A stretch of 61,886 nt of DNA from Anaerolineae bacterium (GCA_034435555.1 DAOTXC010000178.1:1-61886), one strand, 5' to 3'; counted from the first letter of the stretch, positions 14,756 through 24,404 are shown. Numbers and translations are program-made. The notes: generated by a model not told the origin, from the letters alone.

Positions 14756-15292
14756 GTGGTTCTCGATCCATCAACCATAGTGACAGATATCAAAGCGCTT
14801 TTGAGAGAGATGATCGCTTGGGCGCAAAATCAGGAAGAGATCCTTGCTTTATACCTCTACGGTTCTCAGTTGTACGGTCGCGTCCATCCAATGAGCGACA
14901 TTGATGTCGCGCTGCTGGTAGCGCCAGAACTCTCTAAGCATCAACTATGGCGCTTAGAGGACCGCTATGCTACCCGATGGCCCGAAGTGGTAGATCTTCA
15001 CCTTTTGAATTTGGCCCCCTTAGCCTTTCGCTTTGAAGTCACAGCCCAAGGACAACGGTTGTGGGCGCGCGATCTTGAAGCTGTCGCAGCTTGGGAATCT
15101 TTGGTCTGGCGGCGTTATTGGGATGTAAGCCCTCGACTGAAGCGCCATTGGCGAGAGCACGTCACGCAAATCATGGAGCACAAAGATGAACTTGAACGTC
15201 AGCAGTATCAGACAGCGCTCGCAAAAGTTAGAGCAGTACATCGCCGAGTTAGAGAAGCAGCAAGCGGTTACAATCGAGAACCTCAAGAGTGA
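14756..15292 (+). CDS. MntA-type minimal nucleotidyltransferase antitoxin
   Basis: GS-X10-DxD motif (GSQLYGRVHPMSDID), VDLHLLN; upstream of a HEPN gene; more AT-rich than its flanks. Confidence 0.85.
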   Translation: MVLDPSTIVTDIKALLREMIAWAQNQEEILALYLYGSQLYGRVHPMSDIDVALLVAPELSKHQLWRLEDRYATRWPEVVDLHLLNLAPLAFRFEVTAQGQRLWARDLEAVAAWESLVWRRYWDVSPRLKRHWREHVTQIMEHKDELERQQYQTALAKVRAVHRRVREAASGYNREPQE

Positions 15293-15620
15293 TTTTACCC
15301 GCCAACTGGCAGTAGAACGCGCCTTCCAGGCAGCCATTGAAAGTTGCACCGATATTGCTACCCATATTGTCTCGGTTTACCGACTCGGGCACCCGCAAGA
15401 GAGTCGGGACGTGTTCCGTTTTCTAATCGAGGCCGGCTATTTAGACGCGGCATTTGGGGAAGCTATGATAGCCCTGGTAGGATTCCGCAACCGCATTGTC
15501 CACCTGTATTGGGATGTTGATGTAGAACGTTTGCATCAATACCTTCAAGAAGACATTGGATTGCTACGCCAATTCCATGATTTCACCTTACAGATTCTAG
15601 AAGCCGAAGAGACTCTCTGA
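15186..15620 (+). CDS. HepT-like (DUF86) HEPN RNase toxin
   Basis: R-X4-H-X-Y motif (RNRIVHLY), AVERAFQAAIE, DIATHI. Confidence 0.88.
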   Translation: MNLNVSSIRQRSQKLEQYIAELEKQQAVTIENLKSDFTRQLAVERAFQAAIESCTDIATHIVSVYRLGHPQESRDVFRFLIEAGYLDAAFGEAMIALVGFRNRIVHLYWDVDVERLHQYLQEDIGLLRQFHDFTLQILEAEETL

Positions 15621-15652
15621 TCATATTTAACCGGCACCGAATGGAACATGGG

Positions 15653-15677
15653 GGCGGATTCCATTGAGAAATCCGCC
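15653..15677. terminator. Hairpin between hepT and the end of the hcp operon
   Basis: GGCGGATT / AATCCGCC inverted repeat. Confidence 0.55.
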
Positions 15678-15689
15678 TCCGCGCCGGCA

Positions 15690-16028
15690 CTACAGCAACC
15701 GCGATTTTTCCGTCTGCCGTGGCGTCTTGACCACCAGGAAGCGGAAGACGGCCTCGCTCTCGTTCCACAAGCGATGGGGAATGCGCGCCGGGCTGACGAC
15801 GAGCTGATCCTGTTGCACAGGCTGCTGCTCCCCGCCAATTTCCACCACGCCCTCGCCCTCCAGCCCATAGAAGAAGGCATCCACCGGCGTGAGATGCAAC
15901 TTAAGCGCCTCACCCGGCTGAAGCGTGATCATCACCACTTGCACATGCTCGGTGCTGTGCAGCTCCCTGACGCTCACGTTGTGCGCGTTAGGCGCCTCTT
16001 GAACGGTCTTGCTGTCAATGATCTCCAT
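15690..16028 (-). CDS. Cupin-domain protein
   Basis: LQPGEALKLH, LEGEGVVEIG, PARIPHRLWN; RBS AAGGAG before ATG 16028. Confidence 0.85.
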   Translation of the reverse strand: MEIIDSKTVQEAPNAHNVSVRELHSTEHVQVVMITLQPGEALKLHLTPVDAFFYGLEGEGVVEIGGEQQPVQQDQLVVSPARIPHRLWNESEAVFRFLVVKTPRQTEKSRLL

Positions 16029-16054
16029 GACTTTCTCCTTGTAACAGTGTGGTA

Positions 16055-16372
16055 TCAAACTACCAATGCCGCCATATCGCTGGCGAACAAGCCCAACCGA
16101 TCTCCAGGCGCGACCGGCAGATCGGCATCCCAATCCCAGACATCCTGCTGGGCCTGCTGATAGCGCAGCCAGGGGGCCATGGTGTTGTGCGTTGCCAGCA
16201 GGTTCCCATTGTGGAAGACGTGATAGAGCTCCTCCAACGGAATACCTGCCCGGCGCAACAGCATCATCACCGTCTCACCGGCCTGTGGCTCCAGATGGAT
16301 GACAGTCTCCTCGGCGGCGCGTGCGCCTGGGACCAGGCGACGCAATTTTCCATACAGATGAATTTCAACCAT
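16055..16372 (-). CDS. MoaD/ThiS-like beta-grasp (ubiquitin-fold) protein lacking C-terminal GG
   Basis: VEIHLYGKLR N-terminal strand, GETV..LLRRAGIP, VFHNG, PGDRLGLF; ends DMAALVV. Confidence 0.65.
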   Translation of the reverse strand: MVEIHLYGKLRRLVPGARAAEETVIHLEPQAGETVMMLLRRAGIPLEELYHVFHNGNLLATHNTMAPWLRYQQAQQDVWDWDADLPVAPGDRLGLFASDMAALVV

Positions 16373-16381
16373 CGTGTCCTC

Positions 16382-17620
16382 CTACTCGTCCAGCAGCCGC
16401 CGCTCGCCTTCCAAAGCGCGAAGCGGCGTCAGGTTCTGGCTGACCTCGAGCGCGCCGCGATAGGCACCATCGGCGTCGCGCAGCGCAAAATAGCGGATGT
16501 GAATGAACATGCCCGCCATCTGGATCCAGAACTCGGCGCTGTCGCGGGTTCCGGCGCGGAAATCATTGAGGATGCGCTGCACACGATCCACGCTCTGCGG
16601 CGGGTGGCAGTTCTGCACCGCGCGCCCGATGATGGATGGCGTGCGCGGGAAGATGCGCTCCGGCGTCTGCGAGAAATAGCGCACCGTGTCCGTCTCGTCC
16701 ACGAAAGTGATATCCACCGGCAGCGCCTTGAGTAGCAAGTCGAGCTGGGCAGGGCTGAGCGCGCCCACGCTGAGCGGGATCAGCCCCCCGGCCACGCCGA
16801 CCGGCGGCGCAGCAGCCTCGACCTGCTCCTGCTCGCGAGGGTCAAGGCGCGGCTGCCATTGGTTGCCGGGCCGGGCGTAGCAGTAGCCGATCTCGTCGCC
16901 CTGCGCGCGAATCGCGGCCCACTCCACCTCCGTCAGCCGTTCCAGCGCCGCCGGAAAGAGAATCTTCTCCTCCTTGTAGACCATGTCGCGGATGGCCTGT
17001 GCCAGCGGCAGGAAGAGCGCATCTATCTGTGCCGCCAACTCCGCTGACGGCATATCCTCGGCGCCCGCCAGCAGCGCCGCGAGCGCCTTCCACTGGGCGC
17101 GGATCTCATCGTGGACGCCCCACATCACCTTGGTGGGGCCGGAGAAGCCGGTGCGCTCCAGATAGGCGAAGAGGATGTTCTCCTTGCGCAGATAGTGCTG
17201 GTCATACTCACGGAGTTTGTCCACCGCCGCCCGCGCCGCCGCGAAGGTCGCCGCGTTGGGCAGATTTTTTACGTCCTCCAGCGCCTCCGCCAGCGCATCG
17301 AGCACACGCTGCACGCCGAGGTTCTCGGCGCGGTAGGTGAAGACTGGGTGGCCCGGCACGGTCTCCGGCGCGCGCTGCTCGTCCAGCGAGTCGCGGAAGA
17401 CGGCGACGTGCAGGTCGCACAACGGCTGAATCTCCGCCGGATCAAGACCCTCCTCCACCAACGCCTGCTCAATGCGGATGATCTCATCCGGGCCGACGTC
17501 CTCCAGCAGCGCCGCGAAGTCCGCCTTGACTTCATCCGGTGATTTCCCGGCGTGCAGCGCACGGATAATAGCCTTCAGTTTGGCCTCGCGCTGGCTTTGG
17601 TTGTTGATAAACTCACTCAT
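16382..17620 (-). CDS. DUF438 + hemerythrin-like + PAS domain protein
   Basis: CDLHVAVF, GHPV, HYLRKENILF, HDEIR, KEEKILFP; C-terminal PAS with NCHPP. Confidence 0.85.
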   Translation of the reverse strand: MSEFINNQSQREAKLKAIIRALHAGKSPDEVKADFAALLEDVGPDEIIRIEQALVEEGLDPAEIQPLCDLHVAVFRDSLDEQRAPETVPGHPVFTYRAENLGVQRVLDALAEALEDVKNLPNAATFAAARAAVDKLREYDQHYLRKENILFAYLERTGFSGPTKVMWGVHDEIRAQWKALAALLAGAEDMPSAELAAQIDALFLPLAQAIRDMVYKEEKILFPAALERLTEVEWAAIRAQGDEIGYCYARPGNQWQPRLDPREQEQVEAAAPPVGVAGGLIPLSVGALSPAQLDLLLKALPVDITFVDETDTVRYFSQTPERIFPRTPSIIGRAVQNCHPPQSVDRVQRILNDFRAGTRDSAEFWIQMAGMFIHIRYFALRDADGAYRGALEVSQNLTPLRALEGERRLLDE

Positions 17621-17640
17621 GATTATCCTCCTGTTGATCT

Positions 17641-17746
17641 GCCGTCCACGAATCAGGCCACAAATACAAGAATATAGGTGCTGTTATACATGACGCTTGC
17701 ATCAGACGACAGCGCATTCGTGTATTCGCGCAAATTCGTGGACGGC
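17641..17746. repeat. Palindromic REP-like element with internal short-period repeats
   Basis: 13-bp perfect terminal inverted repeat GCCGTCCACGAAT / ATTCGTGGACGGC; internal degenerate ACGAAT/ATTCGT units. Confidence 0.7.
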
Positions 17747-17754
17747 CACCTTGG

Positions 17755-18234
17755 TTATTCCAGTATCGCTATCCCCACCCGCTCGCGCCACCAGTTGCCC
17801 AAGCCCCAGGTCATCCCGGCTTCGGTCTGCGCCAGCAGGACGAAGAGCAGCGCGTAGATGATGTGCTGGTCAATCAGCGGGTTCTGGGCAGGCGGCAGGT
17901 GCGCCGACCACATCATCAGCATCATGAGCGGGCCGCCAACCCCGGCGATCTTTAGGCCGATGCCCAGGATTAACGCCAGTCCCAGTCCCAGAAGCCCAAA
18001 CATGAAGAGCACGTTCACCACCGGCAGGCCGGCGATGCTCTGATAGAGGCCCGCCAGCGGCCCGGCGGTGGCAAAGGTCAAAAAGCCGTAGGTCGGCGAG
18101 CCGCCAGCCAACCAGGCGTTCTCCGGGGCCGTCGAAATGCCCAACCCCAGGAGTTTATCCAGGAAAGACCAGAAAAAGACCCACCCCAGACTAATGCGCA
18201 GTACAGCGAGTACATAGCGGGTTTTCTGATTCAT
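17755..18234 (-). CDS. DoxX/DoxD-family membrane protein
   Basis: LRISLGWVFFWSFLDK, 4 TM segments, NPLIDQHIIY. Confidence 0.8.
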   Translation of the reverse strand: MNQKTRYVLAVLRISLGWVFFWSFLDKLLGLGISTAPENAWLAGGSPTYGFLTFATAGPLAGLYQSIAGLPVVNVLFMFGLLGLGLALILGIGLKIAGVGGPLMMLMMWSAHLPPAQNPLIDQHIIYALLFVLLAQTEAGMTWGLGNWWRERVGIAILE

Positions 18235-18258
18235 CGTTTCCTCCGTACTTCCCTTTCC

Positions 18259-19947
18259 CTACGCCCCGACGGCGATAGCAGCCAGATCCGCCTCGACCTC
18301 GCCAATGGGCTTGATGTCGAAGTTATCCACCAACACCTTGACCACACCCGGCGAAAGGAACGCGGGCAGGCTCGGCCCCAGGCGGATGTGCTTGACGCCT
18401 AAGTAGAGCAACGCCAGCAGCACGATAACGGCCTTCTGTTCGTACCAGGCGATGTCGTAGGAGATGGGCAGGTCGTTGATGTCGTCCAGGCCGAAGGCGT
18501 CCTTCAGTTGCAGCGCGATGTAGGCCAGCGAGTAGGAGTCATTGCACTGCCCGGCATCGAGGATGCGCGGGATGCCGCCGATGTCGCCCAGATCGAGCTT
18601 GTTGTAGCGGTACTTGGCGCACCCCGCCGTGAGGATGACGTGATCCTGCGGCAGACCCTCGGCGATTTGCGTGTAATACTCGCGGCTCCGCTGACGGCCA
18701 TCGCAGCCTGCCATCACCACAAAGCGGCGGATATCGCCCTGCTGCACGGCGTTGATGATCTTGTCGGCCACGCTCATCACGGTAGCGTGGGCGAACCCGG
18801 CGGGAATCGCCCCGTCTTCGAGGGCCTGCGGCTCGGCTGAACGCTGCGCCATCTCGATAAGCGGAGTGAAGTCCTTCTGCTGCCCCGGCTCCCGGTCGGG
18901 GATGTGCGGGCAGCCGGGCCAACCGGCCAGGCCAGTGGTGAAGAGGCGCTCCCTGTAGCTCTCTTTCACCGGGACAATACAGTTGGTTGTCATCAGAATG
19001 GCCCCGCCGAAGCTCTCAAACTCCTTGGCCTGATGCCACCACGAGCCGCCGTAGTTCCCAACGAAGTGCGGATACTTCTTGAAGGCGGGATAGGCGTTGG
19101 CGGGCAGCATCTCGCCGTGGGTGTAGACGTTGACGCCCGTGCCCTCGGTCTGCTGAAGCAACTCATCCATGTCGCGCAGATCGTGACCGCTGATGAGGAT
19201 CGCCGGGCCGGGCCGCACGCCGAGATTGACCTGGGTCGGCTCCGGGTGGCCGTAGCGCCCGGTATTGGCCTCGTCGAGCAGGCGCATGGCCTCCACCCCC
19301 ATCTCGCCAGCCTTGAGCACCAGGCCCACCAGATCAGCGGCGCTCAGGCTGTCATCCAGGGTGGCGTCCAGCGCCTCCTGCATGAAGTGCAAGAGCGCAT
19401 CGTTGGTGTACTCCAGCACGTAGGCGTGCTCGGTGTAGGCCGCCAGCCCCTTGAGGCCGTAGATCAGCAGTTCCCGCAGCGAGCGGATGTCCTCGTCAAG
19501 GTCGGGATCGGCCAGAACGCCCACCAGCTGCCCCTTCATCTCCAGCACGTTGGCATCGTAGGTCTTGGGGAGCCAGGTTGCCGCTTCGGGCAGGCCATCG
19601 CCGCAGGCATCCGCGCCGTGGAGGGCGCGACATTGCGCCTGGGCGCGCTCGCGCAGCGCCTCGCGGCGCTGAATCGCTTCCTCGATCCAGGCCACATGCA
19701 CCGCCGGATCGAAGTTGACATTGGTGATGGTCAAAAAAAGCGCCTTCGCCACGAACAGATCGGTCTCCGGGTCCACAATCCCCAGGTTCGCGCGTCCCCG
19801 CACGCCCCAGAAGGAAATTCCCTTGAGCGCCCAGATTAGCAAATCCTGCAGGTTCGCCACCTCCGGGGTCTTGCCGCAGACGCCACGCACCGTGCACCCC
19901 TCATTCTTGGCCGCTTCCTGACACTGATAACAGAACATATCCATCAT
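18259..19947 (-). CDS. hcp: Hybrid cluster protein (hydroxylamine/NO reductase)
   Basis: [18 protein letters not shown] cubane ligands; hybrid-cluster motifs SGHD, THGEM, TTNC, GCDG, GCAKY, GQCND, WYEQK. Confidence 0.96.
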
Positions 19948-19961
19948 AACCTCCTCGTAAA

Positions 19962-20192
19962 TTAGCGCGTATTGTTATCTGATGCAGCAGGAGCAACGAC
20001 GAACTCGTAGGCCAGGGTAATCGCATCCTCCGGGCAGAGCTCCTCGCACAGGCCACAGTAGGAGCAGTCCGCAGGCCGCACAATCACCGGACGGCCCGCG
20101 AGCAGTTCAACGGCCTGCGTGGGGCAATAAGTCACACAATGCCCACAGCCCGTGCAGCGCTCCAGGTCAATCGTCGGCAGCCATAAATCCAT
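19962..20192 (-). CDS. 2x[4Fe-4S] ferredoxin
   Basis: [12 protein letters not shown] and [12 protein letters not shown]; RBS GGAGG. Confidence 0.9.
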
Positions 20193-20220
20193 CGTCATCT
20201 TCCTCCGCATCAGTAGCCAT

Positions 20221-20263
20221 AGCATACCACGCGGGGGTCAGGGAGTCTGTGACTTTAGTTACA
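20221..20263 (-). promoter_or_regulatory. CRP/HcpR-type box plus extended -10 of the hcp operon
   Basis: TGTGA-N6-TTACA at 20248-20263; TG-G-TATGCT with the hexamer at 20221-20226 on the minus strand. Confidence 0.75.
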
Positions 20264-20317
20264 AAGCGAGTCAGCGAATCCGGGGGCAGCAAAATCCAGG
20301 TCACTCGTGGTTGTAGT

Positions 20318-20983
20318 TCACAGCTCCGCCTCGCGTTCAAGGGCGGCGTGATCCACCACGGTAATGCGCTGGCGCTCCGCCTTGAGCAGCCCTTCCTTGA
20401 CGAAGGCCCGCAGCGTGCGGCTCACCACCTCGCGCACGCTGCCGATGTGCGCGGCGATCTCCTCGTGGGTCCAACGGGCCGGCAATTCGGCAGCTTCTTG
20501 CTCGAGCAAGAAACGCGCCAGCCGCCCCCGCACCGAATACAGCGCCAGGTCACTCGCCAAGCCGGTGAGATGCGCCAGCCGTTCGGCAAAATCGGCGAGG
20601 AGCACCTGCGCCAGATCGGGCCACTCGCGCAGCAGGCGGCGGAAATCGGCGGCGTGGAGGAGGAGCAAGGTCACATCGTTAAGCGCCTCGACGCTGGCGG
20701 CGTTCAGTCCTGCGGACTGCAAGGGGGGCGCGATGTTGAACGCTTCCCCCGGCCCCAACTGCACGAGCACCTGCTGGCGGCCCTGCGGCGACATCCGATA
20801 AACGGAGACCTCGCCCGCGAGGATGAAATAGGCCGCCTCGCAGAGGACGCCTTCGAGCAGTATTAATGCACCGGCAGGATAGCGGCGCTCGATAGCCGCT
20901 TCCGCGATGCACGCCAATGCCGCATCGGGCAGCTCGGCGAAAAGCGCGATCTGCCGCAACGTGTCGGAAGCAAAGGTCGCCAT
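20318..20983 (-). CDS. Crp/Fnr family regulator (HcpR-like)
   Basis: cNMP-binding-fold N-domain (LGPGEAFN), recognition helix SVREVVSR; adjacent to hcp. Confidence 0.88.
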   Translation of the reverse strand: MATFASDTLRQIALFAELPDAALACIAEAAIERRYPAGALILLEGVLCEAAYFILAGEVSVYRMSPQGRQQVLVQLGPGEAFNIAPPLQSAGLNAASVEALNDVTLLLLHAADFRRLLREWPDLAQVLLADFAERLAHLTGLASDLALYSVRGRLARFLLEQEAAELPARWTHEEIAAHIGSVREVVSRTLRAFVKEGLLKAERQRITVVDHAALEREAEL

Positions 20984-20988
20984 AGCGC

Positions 20989-21024
20989 CTGGGGATGGGC
21001 AGGAGACCCCTCGCCCATCCCCAG
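20989..21024. other. Strong GC hairpin between thrS and the Crp/Fnr gene
   Basis: 12-bp perfect inverted repeat CTGGGGATGGGC / GCCCATCCCCAG; no U-tract. Confidence 0.6.
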
Positions 21025-21036
21025 ATCCCCTATCAG

Positions 21037-22830
21037 CTATTCCAGCGCGCGGGTGGCTAGCGCCTGCTGCACGTGCGCGATGAAGTCATCCACTGAAAGC
21101 ACGCCCAGCTGCCGGTTCTTGCCACGCAAGCGGACAGCGACCGTGCCGGCTTCCGCCTCCTGATCGCCGACGACCAGCATGTACGGGACCTTCTGCAGCT
21201 GCGCCTCGCGGATCTTGGCGTTCATCCGCGACGCCGACGCATCCACATTGACGCGGATGCGCGCCTGGCGCAGCTGCTCCTCGACCTGACGGGCGTACTC
21301 GATGTGCCGGTCGGCGATGGGGATCACCCGCGCCTGCTCCGGGGCCAGCCACACCGGGAACGCACCCGCGTAGTGCTCCACCAAGATGCCGAAGAAGCGC
21401 TCGATGGAGCCAAGCAGCGCGCGATGCACCATGTAGGGGCGGTGCTCGGCACCATCCTCGCCCACGTAGGTCATATCGAAGCGCTCCGGCAGGTTAAAGT
21501 CGAACTGGATCGTCGTCAACTGCCACTCGCGGCCCAGCGCGTCCCGGATTTTGAGGTCAATCTTGGGGCCGTAGAAAGCCCCGCCGCCCGCATCCACCTC
21601 ATAGGCGACCCCCTCGGCCTCGATGGCCCGCTGGAGCGCGGCCTGCGCCTGCTCCCAACGCGCGGGTTCGCCCACTGCCTTCTCCGGGCGCGTGGCAAGA
21701 TAGGCCTCGATCTCCTCAAAGCCGAAGGCGTGCAACATCTCCAACGAGAAGCGCAACACGCGCAGCACCTCAGCCTCGATCTGCTCCGGCGTGCAGATGA
21801 TGTGCGCATCATCCTGCGTGAAGCCGCGCACGCGCAACAGCCCATGGAGCACGCCGCTCTTCTCATAGCGGTAGACCGTACCCAGCTCCGCCCAGCGTAA
21901 CGGCAGCTCGCGATAGGAGCGCAAGCTCGTCTTGTAGATCATGATGTGGAAGGGGCAGTTCATCGGCTTGATGAAGTACTCCTGGCCGTCCACGTCCATC
22001 GGCGCGTACATGCTCTCGCGGTAGAAATCGAGGTGGCCGGAAGTATCCCACAGCCACGCCTTGCCGATGTGCGGCGAGTAGACGAAATCATAGCCGCCCT
22101 CGAGGTGCTGGTCGCGCCAGAAGTCCTCGATGGTCTTGCGCATCATCGCGCCTTTGGGATGCCAGTAGGCCAGACCCGGCCCGGCCTCCTCGTGGAACGA
22201 GAGCAGGTCGAGATCGCGAATGAGCCGGCGGTGATCGCGCTTCTTCACCTCTTCCAGCCAGTCGAGGTATTCGCGCAGCTCCTTGGGGCTTTCCCAGGCC
22301 GTGCCGTAGATGCGCTGAAGCATGGGGCGGTCGGCATCACCGCGCCAGTAGGCCCCGGCGACGTTGAGCAGCTTAACGGCCTTGGGGTTGATCTCGCGGG
22401 AGTTTTCCACATGCGGCCCCCGGCAGAGATCAACGAACGCGCCGCTCTTGTAAATCGAGAGTTTGGGCGTCTCCGTCTTCTCGCCGTACTCGTCGGTGCC
22501 GCGCTCCAGGATGTCGTGGATCAGCTCCAGCTTGTAGGGCTGATCCGCGAAGAGCGCCTCACCCTGCTCTGGCGCGATCTCCTCGTAGACGAAATCATGC
22601 CTCTCGGCGAGCAGCTCTCGCATCCGCTCCTCAATTTCCGCCAGGTCCTCCTCGGTGAGCGGGCGTGGCAGATCGAAGTCGTAGTAGAAGCCATGCTCGA
22701 TGGGCGGCCCGATGGCGACTTTGCCGTCGGGGAATTTTTCCAGCACCGCAGCCGCCATCACGTGCGCGGCGGAGTGCCGAATACGATACAGTTTACTTTC
22801 GTGATAAGCTTCGGGACTCATGGATTTCAT
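21037..22830 (-). CDS. thrS: Threonine--tRNA ligase (short form without the N-terminal TGS domain)
   Basis: RHSAAH and DLCRGPH editing motifs, KPMNCP, RVRGFTQDDAH, MVHRA. Confidence 0.97.
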   Translation of the reverse strand: MKSMSPEAYHESKLYRIRHSAAHVMAAAVLEKFPDGKVAIGPPIEHGFYYDFDLPRPLTEEDLAEIEERMRELLAERHDFVYEEIAPEQGEALFADQPYKLELIHDILERGTDEYGEKTETPKLSIYKSGAFVDLCRGPHVENSREINPKAVKLLNVAGAYWRGDADRPMLQRIYGTAWESPKELREYLDWLEEVKKRDHRRLIRDLDLLSFHEEAGPGLAYWHPKGAMMRKTIEDFWRDQHLEGGYDFVYSPHIGKAWLWDTSGHLDFYRESMYAPMDVDGQEYFIKPMNCPFHIMIYKTSLRSYRELPLRWAELGTVYRYEKSGVLHGLLRVRGFTQDDAHIICTPEQIEAEVLRVLRFSLEMLHAFGFEEIEAYLATRPEKAVGEPARWEQAQAALQRAIEAEGVAYEVDAGGGAFYGPKIDLKIRDALGREWQLTTIQFDFNLPERFDMTYVGEDGAEHRPYMVHRALLGSIERFFGILVEHYAGAFPVWLAPEQARVIPIADRHIEYARQVEEQLRQARIRVNVDASASRMNAKIREAQLQKVPYMLVVGDQEAEAGTVAVRLRGKNRQLGVLSVDDFIAHVQQALATRALE

Positions 22831-22854
22831 CGCTTTTCCTCCTTGTTACCTCTA

Positions 22855-23100
22855 CGCAAAAACGCCCCGGTTCCTCTTGGGACGCGGGGCGCACGTGGTT
22901 CCACCCAAGTTCGCAAGCCAGTTTTCTGGCTGCGCACTCTTACGGCTATAACGGGCCTACCCGGAAATCTATACTCGGCCTCGGCCTTTCCAAATTTCAC
23001 TCGCGGGGGGTTTTCGCCGGGTTGGGGTGGAAAAGGCTCTCAGTCGCTGACCCTCTCTCCCTGTCACCTGCTGCCGGGTACTCGTCCCGCTCAACGCAGT
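22855..23100 (-). promoter_or_regulatory. T-box riboswitch (Thr)
   Basis: T-box AACTTGGGTGGAACCACG (22893-22911); terminator CGCCCCG..CGGGGCG plus U-tract; stem I AGTA/CTGAGA motifs; candidate specifier ACC at 23009-23011. Confidence 0.9.
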
Positions 23101-23120
23101 AACATCTTCAACTGAGTATG

Positions 23121-23149
23121 ATTATATCCCCAACGCGGTCGAATGTCAA
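23121..23149 (-). promoter_or_regulatory. thrS promoter
   Basis: Perfect TTGACA-N17-TATAAT. Confidence 0.85.
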
Positions 23150-23402
23150 GAAAATCCGGCGATTTTCGCGCAAAATTGCCCTAATCCGCCATTTGTGGAT
23201 TGCGCAAAGGTCTTTTTTCGTGTAAAATGAAGGTAGAGATGTGGCGCGCCTCTTGCGATATGAAGATAGTGAACCGCAAGCACCCAGCGCTACACACGGG
23301 AGCCTCCTCTTACCTGCAATCAAGGAGGATTGGCATTTTTTCATGTATTATTTTGGCACACAGTTCAAATAAACGCTAACAAGATTAGCATAGGCGAGAG
23401 AA

Positions 23403-24404
23403 ATGAAACACGCAAGTATGATTTTAAGAAAAATGGCGCTCGTCTTGATTCTCGCCACGCTCTTGGGCGCTCTCCCACAGCAGCCCGCCCTGATGCAGCA
23501 GGATGGAGAACGCTTCCGTTACTTTGAGGAGACGGGGCACTATGTGCGCGGCGTCTTTTTGGATTTCTTCGAAAGCCGTGGCGGCTTGAGAATTTTCGGG
23601 TATCCCATCACCGAGCCATTTGTTGACCAGGGCTTTCTGGTGCAGTATTTCCAAAACGCGCGCATGGAATGGCATCCCAACAATCCCGATCCCTACAAGG
23701 TGCAGCTGGGCCTCCTGGGCGACGAGCTCCGCTACCAACAACCGTTCGTGCCACGCCCACAGTTCTCCTCCCGGCGGCGGGTCTACTTCCCCGAAACGGG
23801 ACATACCGTCGCCTACGCCTTTCTCGATTACTTCAACGCCAACGGCGGCATTGATATCTTTGGCTATCCGATCTCCGAGATGTATTTCGAGGACGGCACA
23901 ATCGTGCAGTACTTCCAACGGCTCAAGATGGAGTGGCACCCACAGGACAACGTCAATCCGGTGCAGATCGGCAATTTGGGAGAGCTCTATGTGAGCGTCT
24001 ACCGCAGCCGAATGCCGCAGGAGGCCTTTACCCGCCGGTCGCCCATCCCTACCGCCGACACAACCCCCGAACCCATCCAAACGCCCCGCGTCACGGCCCT
24101 ACGCGCGGTCGTCTCACTGCGGTACTCCGTGATGGGGCAACAGGGCGACCAGACCGTCTCTGTGCTGGTCACTGATAATACGGGGGCAGCCTTGCCAGAG
24201 GCGCAGGTTGATATTCGCTTTATCAGCCCTTCAGGCGCGACGCTAGGCTCCCGCACGGGTCTCCGCACCGACGGGCGGGGATTTGTGCGCGCAGAGATTC
24301 CCGTGACGGGCGGGCGCACTGGCGAGCAAGTCGTCGTACAGGCCGATGTGCGCTACAGCAATCTCACCACTAACGCGCAGAATATCTTCTTGCTCTGGTG
24401 GTGA
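23403..24404 (+). CDS. Secreted protein with two Chloroflexi-type YFPETGH repeats and a C-terminal Ig-like domain
   Basis: Signal peptide; YFEETGH..GGLRIFGYPITE..VQYFQNARMEWHP, repeated as YFPETGH..GGIDIFGYPISE..VQYFQRLKMEWHP. Confidence 0.8.
   Translation: MKHASMILRKMALVLILATLLGALPQQPALMQQDGERFRYFEETGHYVRGVFLDFFESRGGLRIFGYPITEPFVDQGFLVQYFQNARMEWHPNNPDPYKVQLGLLGDELRYQQPFVPRPQFSSRRRVYFPETGHTVAYAFLDYFNANGGIDIFGYPISEMYFEDGTIVQYFQRLKMEWHPQDNVNPVQIGNLGELYVSVYRSRMPQEAFTRRSPIPTADTTPEPIQTPRVTALRAVVSLRYSVMGQQGDQTVSVLVTDNTGAALPEAQVDIRFISPSGATLGSRTGLRTDGRGFVRAEIPVTGGRTGEQVVVQADVRYSNLTTNAQNIFLLWW

Follow-up and report, generated by a model that had tools for sequence, protein, structure and literature searches.

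An hcp gene cluster from an uncultured Anaerolineae bacterium as a likely permutation of a modular HcpR-type nitrosative-stress island

The hybrid cluster protein (Hcp) is a widespread high-affinity nitric oxide (NO) reductase, and its physiological partners are debated. In the genome of an uncultured Anaerolineae bacterium, seven co-directional genes on the minus strand (nucleotides 15690–20983 of a stretch of 61,886 nucleotides, here called the window) place hcp among genes for a Crp/Fnr regulator, a ferredoxin, a DoxX-like membrane protein, a DUF438-hemerythrin-PAS_10 protein, a small protein of beta-grasp (ubiquitin-like) fold and a cupin. The question raised by this locus is whether the neighbours of hcp form a machine devoted to Hcp or share only its regulation. 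We consider it likely that the region is an HcpR-type locus for NO (reactive nitrogen) stress, in which the seven genes represent one permutation of a regulon island that is modular in the Anaerolineae. From genome to genome the members of this island change order, drop out or give way to others, and they do not make up a fixed Hcp-centred machine. The genes, in the order of their direction, are:

20318–20983, minus strand: Crp/Fnr regulator (Pfam cNMP_binding and HTH_Crp_2)
19962–20198, minus strand: ferredoxin, 78 amino acids, 2x[4Fe-4S] (Pfam Fer4/Fer4_7)
18259–19947, minus strand: hcp (NF003658, 815 bits)
17755–18234, minus strand: DoxX/DoxD-like membrane protein (weak Pfam DoxX match)
16382–17620, minus strand: DUF438 + Hemerythrin + PAS_10 protein (Pfam)
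16055–16372, minus strand: beta-grasp protein, 105 amino acids, no Pfam match
15690–16028, minus strand: single-domain cupin, 112 amino acids (Cupin_2)

A preliminary description of this DNA had reported seven co-directional genes with short gaps. The open reading frame (ORF) listing and the Pfam and NCBIfam scans agree with the genes and their orientation; the gaps measure 119, 14, 24, 134, 9 and 26 nt along the cluster, and four of the six (14, 24, 9 and 26 nt) are indeed short, the 119- and 134-nt gaps not. GGAGG-type ribosome-binding sites precede all six genes downstream of the regulator, and the layout is probably that of a regulator gene followed by a six-gene operon. The ferredoxin ORF as listed encodes 87 amino acids and starts inside a -10 element; because the longer ORF begins within the promoter, the ATG at 20198, which is preceded by a Shine-Dalgarno (SD) sequence, is the likelier start. 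For the cupin gene, too, an SD-preceded ATG (gene start at 16028) was adopted in place of a TTG at 16133.

By its sequence, the hcp product is a class I hybrid cluster protein. Its NF003658 score stands against a cut-off of 367 bits, it aligns end to end with the Hcp of Desulfovibrio vulgaris (1E2U/1W9M; E-value 1e-228), and it contains both the N-terminal CX2CX8CX5C motif and the His, Glu, four Cys and Glu of the hybrid cluster. The presence of all cluster ligands, as claimed in the preliminary description, was confirmed: the columns C3, C6, C15, C21, H244, E268, C312, C406, C434, C459 and E494 are identical to D. vulgaris Hcp in 11 of 11 cases, the numbering being what we take to be that of the D. 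vulgaris structure, with four cubane Cys and seven hybrid-cluster ligands. The ferredoxin has two CxxCxxCxxxCP motifs, and in most relatives a ferredoxin gene lies immediately upstream of hcp or of the DUF438 gene. It is likely to be the electron donor to Hcp, in a role similar to that of FrdX.

Two further features, both between the regulator and ferredoxin genes, bear on the control of the cluster:

20248–20263, minus strand: operator box TGTAACTAAAGTCACA, TGTAAC-N4-GTCACA (pattern TGTRAC-N4-GTYACA), centre at 20255.5
20221–20229, minus strand: extended -10 element TGgTATGCT, read from the sequence

Nowhere else in the 61.9-kb window is the pattern TGTRAC-N4-GTYACA found without a mismatch. 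A start site predicted near 20214 would centre it at -41.5, which is class II geometry. Among related loci, a box or palindrome at 62–80 nt ahead of the fdx start is nearly universal, and its sequence varies with the type of recognition helix in the adjacent regulator, three helix types pairing with three box types in about 45 loci. RE..SR helices, the type found in the window (SVREVVSR), pair with TGTGAC/TGTAAC...GTCACA boxes, RD..GR helices with CGAC-TTTT-GTCG boxes, and RE..AR helices with TGTGAC...GTCATA boxes. This co-variation is our best evidence for control of the operon by the neighbouring regulator.

Inspection of the regulator revealed just two Cys, and NAAS in place of the RSA motif that binds cyclic AMP (cAMP). 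On these residues it is not an FNR-type Cys-cluster protein, and it probably does not bind cAMP. Its assignment as HcpR-like comes from gene context: as in HcpR-type regulons, a Crp/Fnr gene adjoins the hcp cluster, an operator lies upstream, and helix and operator co-vary; the association of Crp/Fnr and hcp genes recurs in relatives. The gene identities, the box and the co-variation support the earlier view of a nitrosative-stress-type hcp cluster with an adjacent Crp/Fnr regulator. NO is the presumed signal in view of the content of the regulon.

Four related loci (L003:6394-6472, L041:2155-2230, L054:2571-2641 and L082:8567-8637; related loci are numbered here with the prefix L) and about 20 others contain an 11–13-bp GC-rich hairpin, CCGCCTTTCTG...CAGAAAGGCGG, between the box and the ferredoxin start. 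It is usually followed by a T-run, has a -10-like hexamer in the loop and the SD sequence in its right arm, and shows compensatory changes at 6 of 13 predicted pairs. This hairpin may be a terminator of the regulator gene which overlaps the regulated promoter, or an element which sequesters the SD sequence. The window does not contain it.

Gene neighbourhoods were counted in the best 80 loci of each of two scans, from the beta-grasp side and from the hcp side (160 loci in total); many of the contigs are short, so that all fractions are lower bounds. On the beta-grasp side, tblastn located fdx within 3 kb in 42 of the 80 loci, DUF438 in 28, crp in 27, hcp in 9 and cupin in 7. ORF clustering of the same loci revealed genes for an S-adenosylmethionine (SAM) methyltransferase (23), DUF166 (15), a second ferredoxin (15), flavodiiron/ODP-like proteins (9), stand-alone hemerythrins (8) and NDH2-like oxidoreductases (7). 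The hcp-side set consists of 80 metagenomic loci with Hcp at 61–79% identity, 23 of them at 70% or above and 57 below; counted over the whole locus, the totals are 23 loci for fdx, 11 for DUF438, 5 for cupin and 3 for beta-grasp, and 20 for crp, of which 16 have it within 3 kb. All these genes concentrate in the 23 loci with the more similar Hcp, and most of the other 57 have none.

The arrangements themselves vary. The closest relatives (L009-L012) read crp-fdx-hcp-betagrasp-cupin, while the commonest beta-grasp arrangement, thrS...crp-fdx-DUF438-betagrasp, is free of hcp within 10 kb. Other permutations are crp-fdx-betagrasp-cupin (L017), hcp-DUF438-betagrasp-cupin (L022) and a divergent hcp beside crp-fdx-DUF438-betagrasp-cupin (L020); the window order hcp-(doxX)-DUF438-betagrasp is reproduced in L022 and L176. 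A second architecture reads crp-fdx-fdx2-[ODP or hcp]-betagrasp-methyltransferase-DUF438-DUF166. Co-occurrence with hcp had been proposed as a check on the cluster, and the outcome over the 160 loci is divided: DUF438, beta-grasp and cupin genes do recur with hcp in relatives, but they are often found without it and are rare near hcp genes below 70% identity. A SAM-dependent methyltransferase gene directly follows the beta-grasp gene in 18–23 loci (L029, L041-L045, L054, L058, L063-L066, L075-L080, L084 and L088), often with DUF438 and DUF166 genes after it.

The DUF438 protein matches Pfam Hemerythrin at 65.8 bits. Over its hemerythrin and PAS_10 domains it is similar to PF0695 of Pyrococcus furiosus (3CAX; E-value 1.6e-59), the alignment running from query residue 89 (residue 7 of the chain) onwards, so that the N-terminal DUF438 domain lies outside that chain. 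PAS_10 alone matches the C-terminal domain of SMU_1151c (2QKP; E-value 6.8e-25), and a CHPP motif is conserved between the window protein and these structural-genomics proteins. Residues C68, H71, H91, E99, H142, E147, H170 and E217 are invariant in the family. Comparison of the family profile with YtfE of Escherichia coli using hhalign gave a probability of 91.7% over residues 139–227, that is, over the hemerythrin domain only; H129, H160 and E208 of YtfE have conserved equivalents, and that of E133 is offset by one position. The N-terminal domain is not a ScdA_N domain with its Cys pair; Pfam gives DUF438, and an invariant CxxH is present instead. The protein is therefore YtfE-like at most, and no member of the RIC family. 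The N-terminal domain was modelled with a predicted local distance difference test (pLDDT) score of 57–68, and PAS domains dominate the Foldseek matches of the full model. A literature search on DUF438 together with hybrid cluster protein, and on PF0695/PF0692, returned nothing usable.

The preliminary description had called the 105-residue product a ubiquitin-fold protein, and the structural evidence agrees. The AF2 model has a pLDDT of 88.6 and a predicted template modelling (pTM) score of 0.81, and its best Foldseek matches are MoaD (1NVI_D/1FM0_D), SAMP1 and RnfH, with target-normalised TM scores of 0.65–0.68 and a probability of 1.0. PF14451 (Ub-Mut7C) is matched by 27 of 49 family members, the window protein itself remaining under every Pfam threshold. 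It has neither Cys nor Gly-Gly, ends in LVV (family consensus ...DMAxLVV) and carries an insert of about 20 residues (YQQA...W.W); the family has no conserved Cys or His. No E1/MoeB, MoaE/ThiG or Mut7-C partner was found among its recurrent neighbours. A function as sulfur carrier (persulfide) or conjugated modifier was rejected on the lack of Cys and Gly-Gly, and an accessory role in protein binding is suggested for this reason.

The beta-grasp family comprises 140 protein clusters, with relatives in 238 species genomes, mainly of Anaerolineae/Chloroflexota and including some metagenome-assembled genomes (MAGs) of Desulfobacterales. The gap from DUF438 to the beta-grasp gene is 7–23 nt in 18 loci; the family is the only undescribed element of the cluster, and close coupling with the DUF438 gene is its most frequent setting. 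In 47 of 72 scored beta-grasp loci an island gene is no more than four genes away, and the other 25 lie in unrelated contexts. Only tentatively do we suggest that the protein is the founder of an undescribed non-conjugating ubiquitin-fold family which is specific to NO/redox-stress regulons in Anaerolineae and some Desulfobacterales, with the DUF438 protein or a ferredoxin as obligate partner. Were this true, the beta-grasp subunit might, for example, dock the DUF438 protein or ferredoxins to Hcp or to flavodiiron enzymes, by analogy with RnfH and TmoB, small beta-grasp subunits of other redox or di-iron complexes.

Members outside the stress islands, about one third, are found in L021, L023, L030, L031, L047 and L059-L074, several of these being labelled Desulfobacterales. 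Some of these genes have a gene for an aldehyde:ferredoxin oxidoreductase close by, encoded on the other strand. The family may thus have a role untied to hcp or DUF438.

The cupin matches Cupin_2 (PF07883) at 59.1 bits (cut-off 27.2), and its nearest structure in the PDB is 1V70 (TTHA0104). Inspection of the first metal motif revealed Thr at the usual position of the second His. In relatives the cupin gene recurs after beta-grasp, DUF438 or hcp genes, and 8 loci of the hcp-side set have a distant second small cupin downstream of hcp.

The DoxX-like protein scores 18.3 bits against Pfam DoxX (PF07681), under the cut-off of 23.6. Its homologues form 619 clusters, several of which carry PF07681 or the name doxD in their source. 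No doxX was found in the 160 loci of the beta-grasp and hcp scans; the closest homologues (82–84% identity) adjoin hcp in L176-L182. The order in L176 is hcp-doxX-DUF438-betagrasp, and in L177-L182 hcp-doxX is followed by a convergent thrS, without the downstream accessory genes. Other homologues, with identities of 82%, 68% and 64%, are found as solitary genes, next to an MtaB-like gene, or within a CsoR-DoxX-CopZ-CopA operon, and on account of these copper-operon and unrelated contexts DoxX was rejected as a general partner of Hcp. It is a subclade-level recruit to hcp. The suggestion that the cluster has its own electron supply is supported for the ferredoxin and not for DoxX. In L098, L100 and L101 a flavodiiron-like gene occupies the slot of doxX between hcp and DUF438. 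The 64%-identical homologue is in a Chloroflexota MAG (L094:5619-9291, a copper-resistance-type operon), which also holds a crp-fdx-DUF438-betagrasp cluster on another contig (L038).

The 134-nt gap between doxX and DUF438 contains a further feature:

17641–17746, minus strand: palindromic element, 106 nt, with 13-bp perfect terminal inverted repeats

Its predicted fold, a long hairpin, has an energy of -52.5 kcal/mol (z = -3.35); no other copy is present in the window, and the corresponding gap of L176 differs in sequence. Neither a second operator (box search) nor a promoter-like site (promoter scan) was found in the gap.

From these data the following scheme may be proposed. The regulator would bind the TGTAAC-N4-GTCACA box at -41.5 and activate a single transcript, fdx-hcp-doxX-DUF438-betagrasp-cupin. 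The 2x[4Fe-4S] ferredoxin would pass electrons to the class I Hcp, which would reduce NO (yielding N2O) or hydroxylamine (yielding ammonia). As a hemerythrin-like metal protein handling nitrite, NO or nitrosylated iron centres, the DUF438-hemerythrin-PAS_10 protein might be the counterpart of YtfE/RIC, and the cupin might be that of the NO-induced cupin in Desulfovibrio hcp operons. The beta-grasp protein would act as a non-conjugating ubiquitin-fold accessory, most likely binding the DUF438 protein or a ferredoxin, and DoxX would be a membrane protein that a small subclade has recruited.

Several findings weigh against this scheme. The islands of relatives hold O2-type defence genes (flavodiiron-like genes and, in L157, a rubrerythrin gene beside hcp), and the signal could for this reason be O2 or peroxide. 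The nearest solved structures to the regulator are generic Crp proteins, with no characterised HcpR among them. The ligand His204 of YtfE aligns with a nearly invariant Met in the DUF438 family, so that a di-iron site is not assured, and the hairpin at 17641–17746 could terminate or process the transcript. On the first of these points, together with the stand-alone hemerythrins and NDH2-like oxidoreductases of related loci, one might argue for a regulon mainly of O2/peroxide or general redox defence, with Hcp as one of several di-iron/Fe-S scavengers and a regulator sensing redox state rather than NO. We regard this as quite unlikely, since in every organism studied NO or nitrite elicits a response of hcp, of the cupin and of the hemerythrin-PAS protein (PMC5701242, PMC4534486, PMC1274295), and the hemerythrin-PAS homologue of D. 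vulgaris was reported to be unresponsive to oxidative stress (PMC5701242).

The hairpin and its gap also permit the view that the cluster is a chance junction of two units, fdx-hcp-doxX and DUF438-betagrasp-cupin, the latter expressed separately, with the inserted palindrome between them. Each half does exist by itself, hcp-doxX without the downstream genes in L177-L182 and DUF438-betagrasp without hcp-doxX in many loci. Nevertheless, the gap offers no promoter-like site or second box, the DUF438-betagrasp pair of relatives depends on the same crp-box-fdx head, and hcp and DUF438 stay adjacent in L022 and L176, which together make a chance junction unlikely. The preliminary description had itself favoured a different explanation, in which the DUF438, beta-grasp and cupin proteins are dedicated factors for maturation or repair of the hybrid cluster of Hcp, and the ferredoxin and DoxX its private electron supply. 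This would suit accessory genes that share the direction of hcp and a single promoter with it, the recurrence of hcp-DUF438, hcp-betagrasp-cupin and hcp-doxX adjacencies in relatives, and the homology of the hemerythrin domain to YtfE, formerly proposed to repair iron centres. It is very unlikely all the same: under the same regulator and box, the commonest relatives (crp-fdx-DUF438-betagrasp) and also crp-fdx-betagrasp-cupin loci lack hcp over a distance of 10 kb, the accessory genes are missing beside most Hcp relatives of less than 70% identity, a beta-grasp protein without Cys and Gly-Gly cannot carry sulfur, and DoxX homologues reside in copper-resistance or unrelated contexts. To our knowledge, moreover, E. 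coli and Desulfovibrio make their Hcp without possessing the beta-grasp family.

The flanks of the cluster were also inspected. Upstream lies thrS, with a consensus promoter and a T-box leader: a perfect TTGACA-17-TATAAT promoter (23121–23149, minus strand) precedes the leader (22875–23103, minus strand), which matches Rfam RF00230 at 90 bits, marginally below the gathering score of 93. The Rfam scan of 15000–23600 gave nothing besides this T-box. In many relatives thrS adjoins the island, in both orientations. At the other end are two convergent ORFs on the plus strand, a nucleotidyltransferase-like one (14756–15292) overlapping a second (15186–15620), and between this pair and the cupin gene is a further hairpin:

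15653–15677: 8-bp GC-rich hairpin, read from the sequence

It was missed by the terminator scan and has no T-run, and is a candidate bidirectional terminator.

Taken as an HcpR-type stress locus, the cluster and its approximately 160 relatives outline a defined but shuffling set of helper genes under one regulator in the Anaerolineae, a group dominant in digesters and sediments. This set includes ferredoxins, the DUF438-hemerythrin-PAS protein, the cupin, a flavodiiron-like protein, a methyltransferase, DUF166 and the beta-grasp protein, and it supplies specific candidates for a part of the nitrosative-stress response, its YtfE-like branch, that is still poorly understood. The co-variation of regulator and operator is a clean natural example which could be used for regulon assignment in uncultured genomes.

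Among known proteins, Ub-Mut7C, MoaD/ThiS and RnfH share the beta-grasp fold with the window protein, which differs from them in its insert of about 20 residues and in having no Gly-Gly and no Cys. The DUF438 protein resembles two structural-genomics proteins without known function, PF0695 (3CAX) in hemerythrin plus PAS_10 and SMU_1151c (2QKP) in PAS_10 alone. In E. coli, YtfE and Hcp share their regulation and work together, one after the other (Crack 2022, PMC9052748). The NsrR-controlled YtfE (RIC) and Hcp-Hcr system resembles the present locus in that a hemerythrin-like protein, with a homologous hemerythrin domain, is co-regulated with Hcp. The window protein, however, has DUF438 and not ScdA_N, an additional PAS_10 domain and Met at the equivalent of His204; a ferredoxin takes the place of Hcr as reductase, and the regulator is of Crp type, not Rrf2.

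The closest likeness is to the HcpR loci of Desulfovibrio, which have a Crp/Fnr regulator beside hcp, a palindromic CRP/FNR-like box and a ferredoxin linked to a class I Hcp, as well as a small co-expressed cupin and a hemerythrin-type response protein whose counterparts here are recognized by gene content. HcpR regulons contain hcp and frdX, with ferredoxin-, hemerythrin- and cytochrome-like genes among their members (Rodionov 2005, PMC1274295). The cupin DGI_2602 of Desulfovibrio gigas is HcpR1-dependent and induced by S-nitrosoglutathione (GSNO) (da Silva 2015, PMC4534486), and in Desulfovibrio desulfuricans the pair formed by the cupin gene Ddes_1828 and hcp, beside hcpR2, is the most strongly NO-induced (Cadby 2017, PMC5701242), Ddes_1165, a "YtfE-like hemerythrin + PAS" protein, also being induced by NO (PMC5701242). 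The combination had been put forward as a candidate for an undescribed system; these regulons do not support that, as the core of regulator, ferredoxin, Hcp, cupin and hemerythrin-PAS protein is already known from Desulfovibrio. The present locus differs from those loci in placing all parts behind one predicted promoter, in its TGTRAC-N4-GTYACA operator variant, in the extra beta-grasp and DoxX-like genes, and in its Anaerolineae host. The cluster is thus a local, reshuffled form of the HcpR nitrosative-stress regulon already known, not a new kind of system. Its new features are modest ones: the predicted arrangement as one operon, the operator variant with its regulator co-variation, the subclade-specific DoxX, and the presence of the previously undescribed beta-grasp family in the island.

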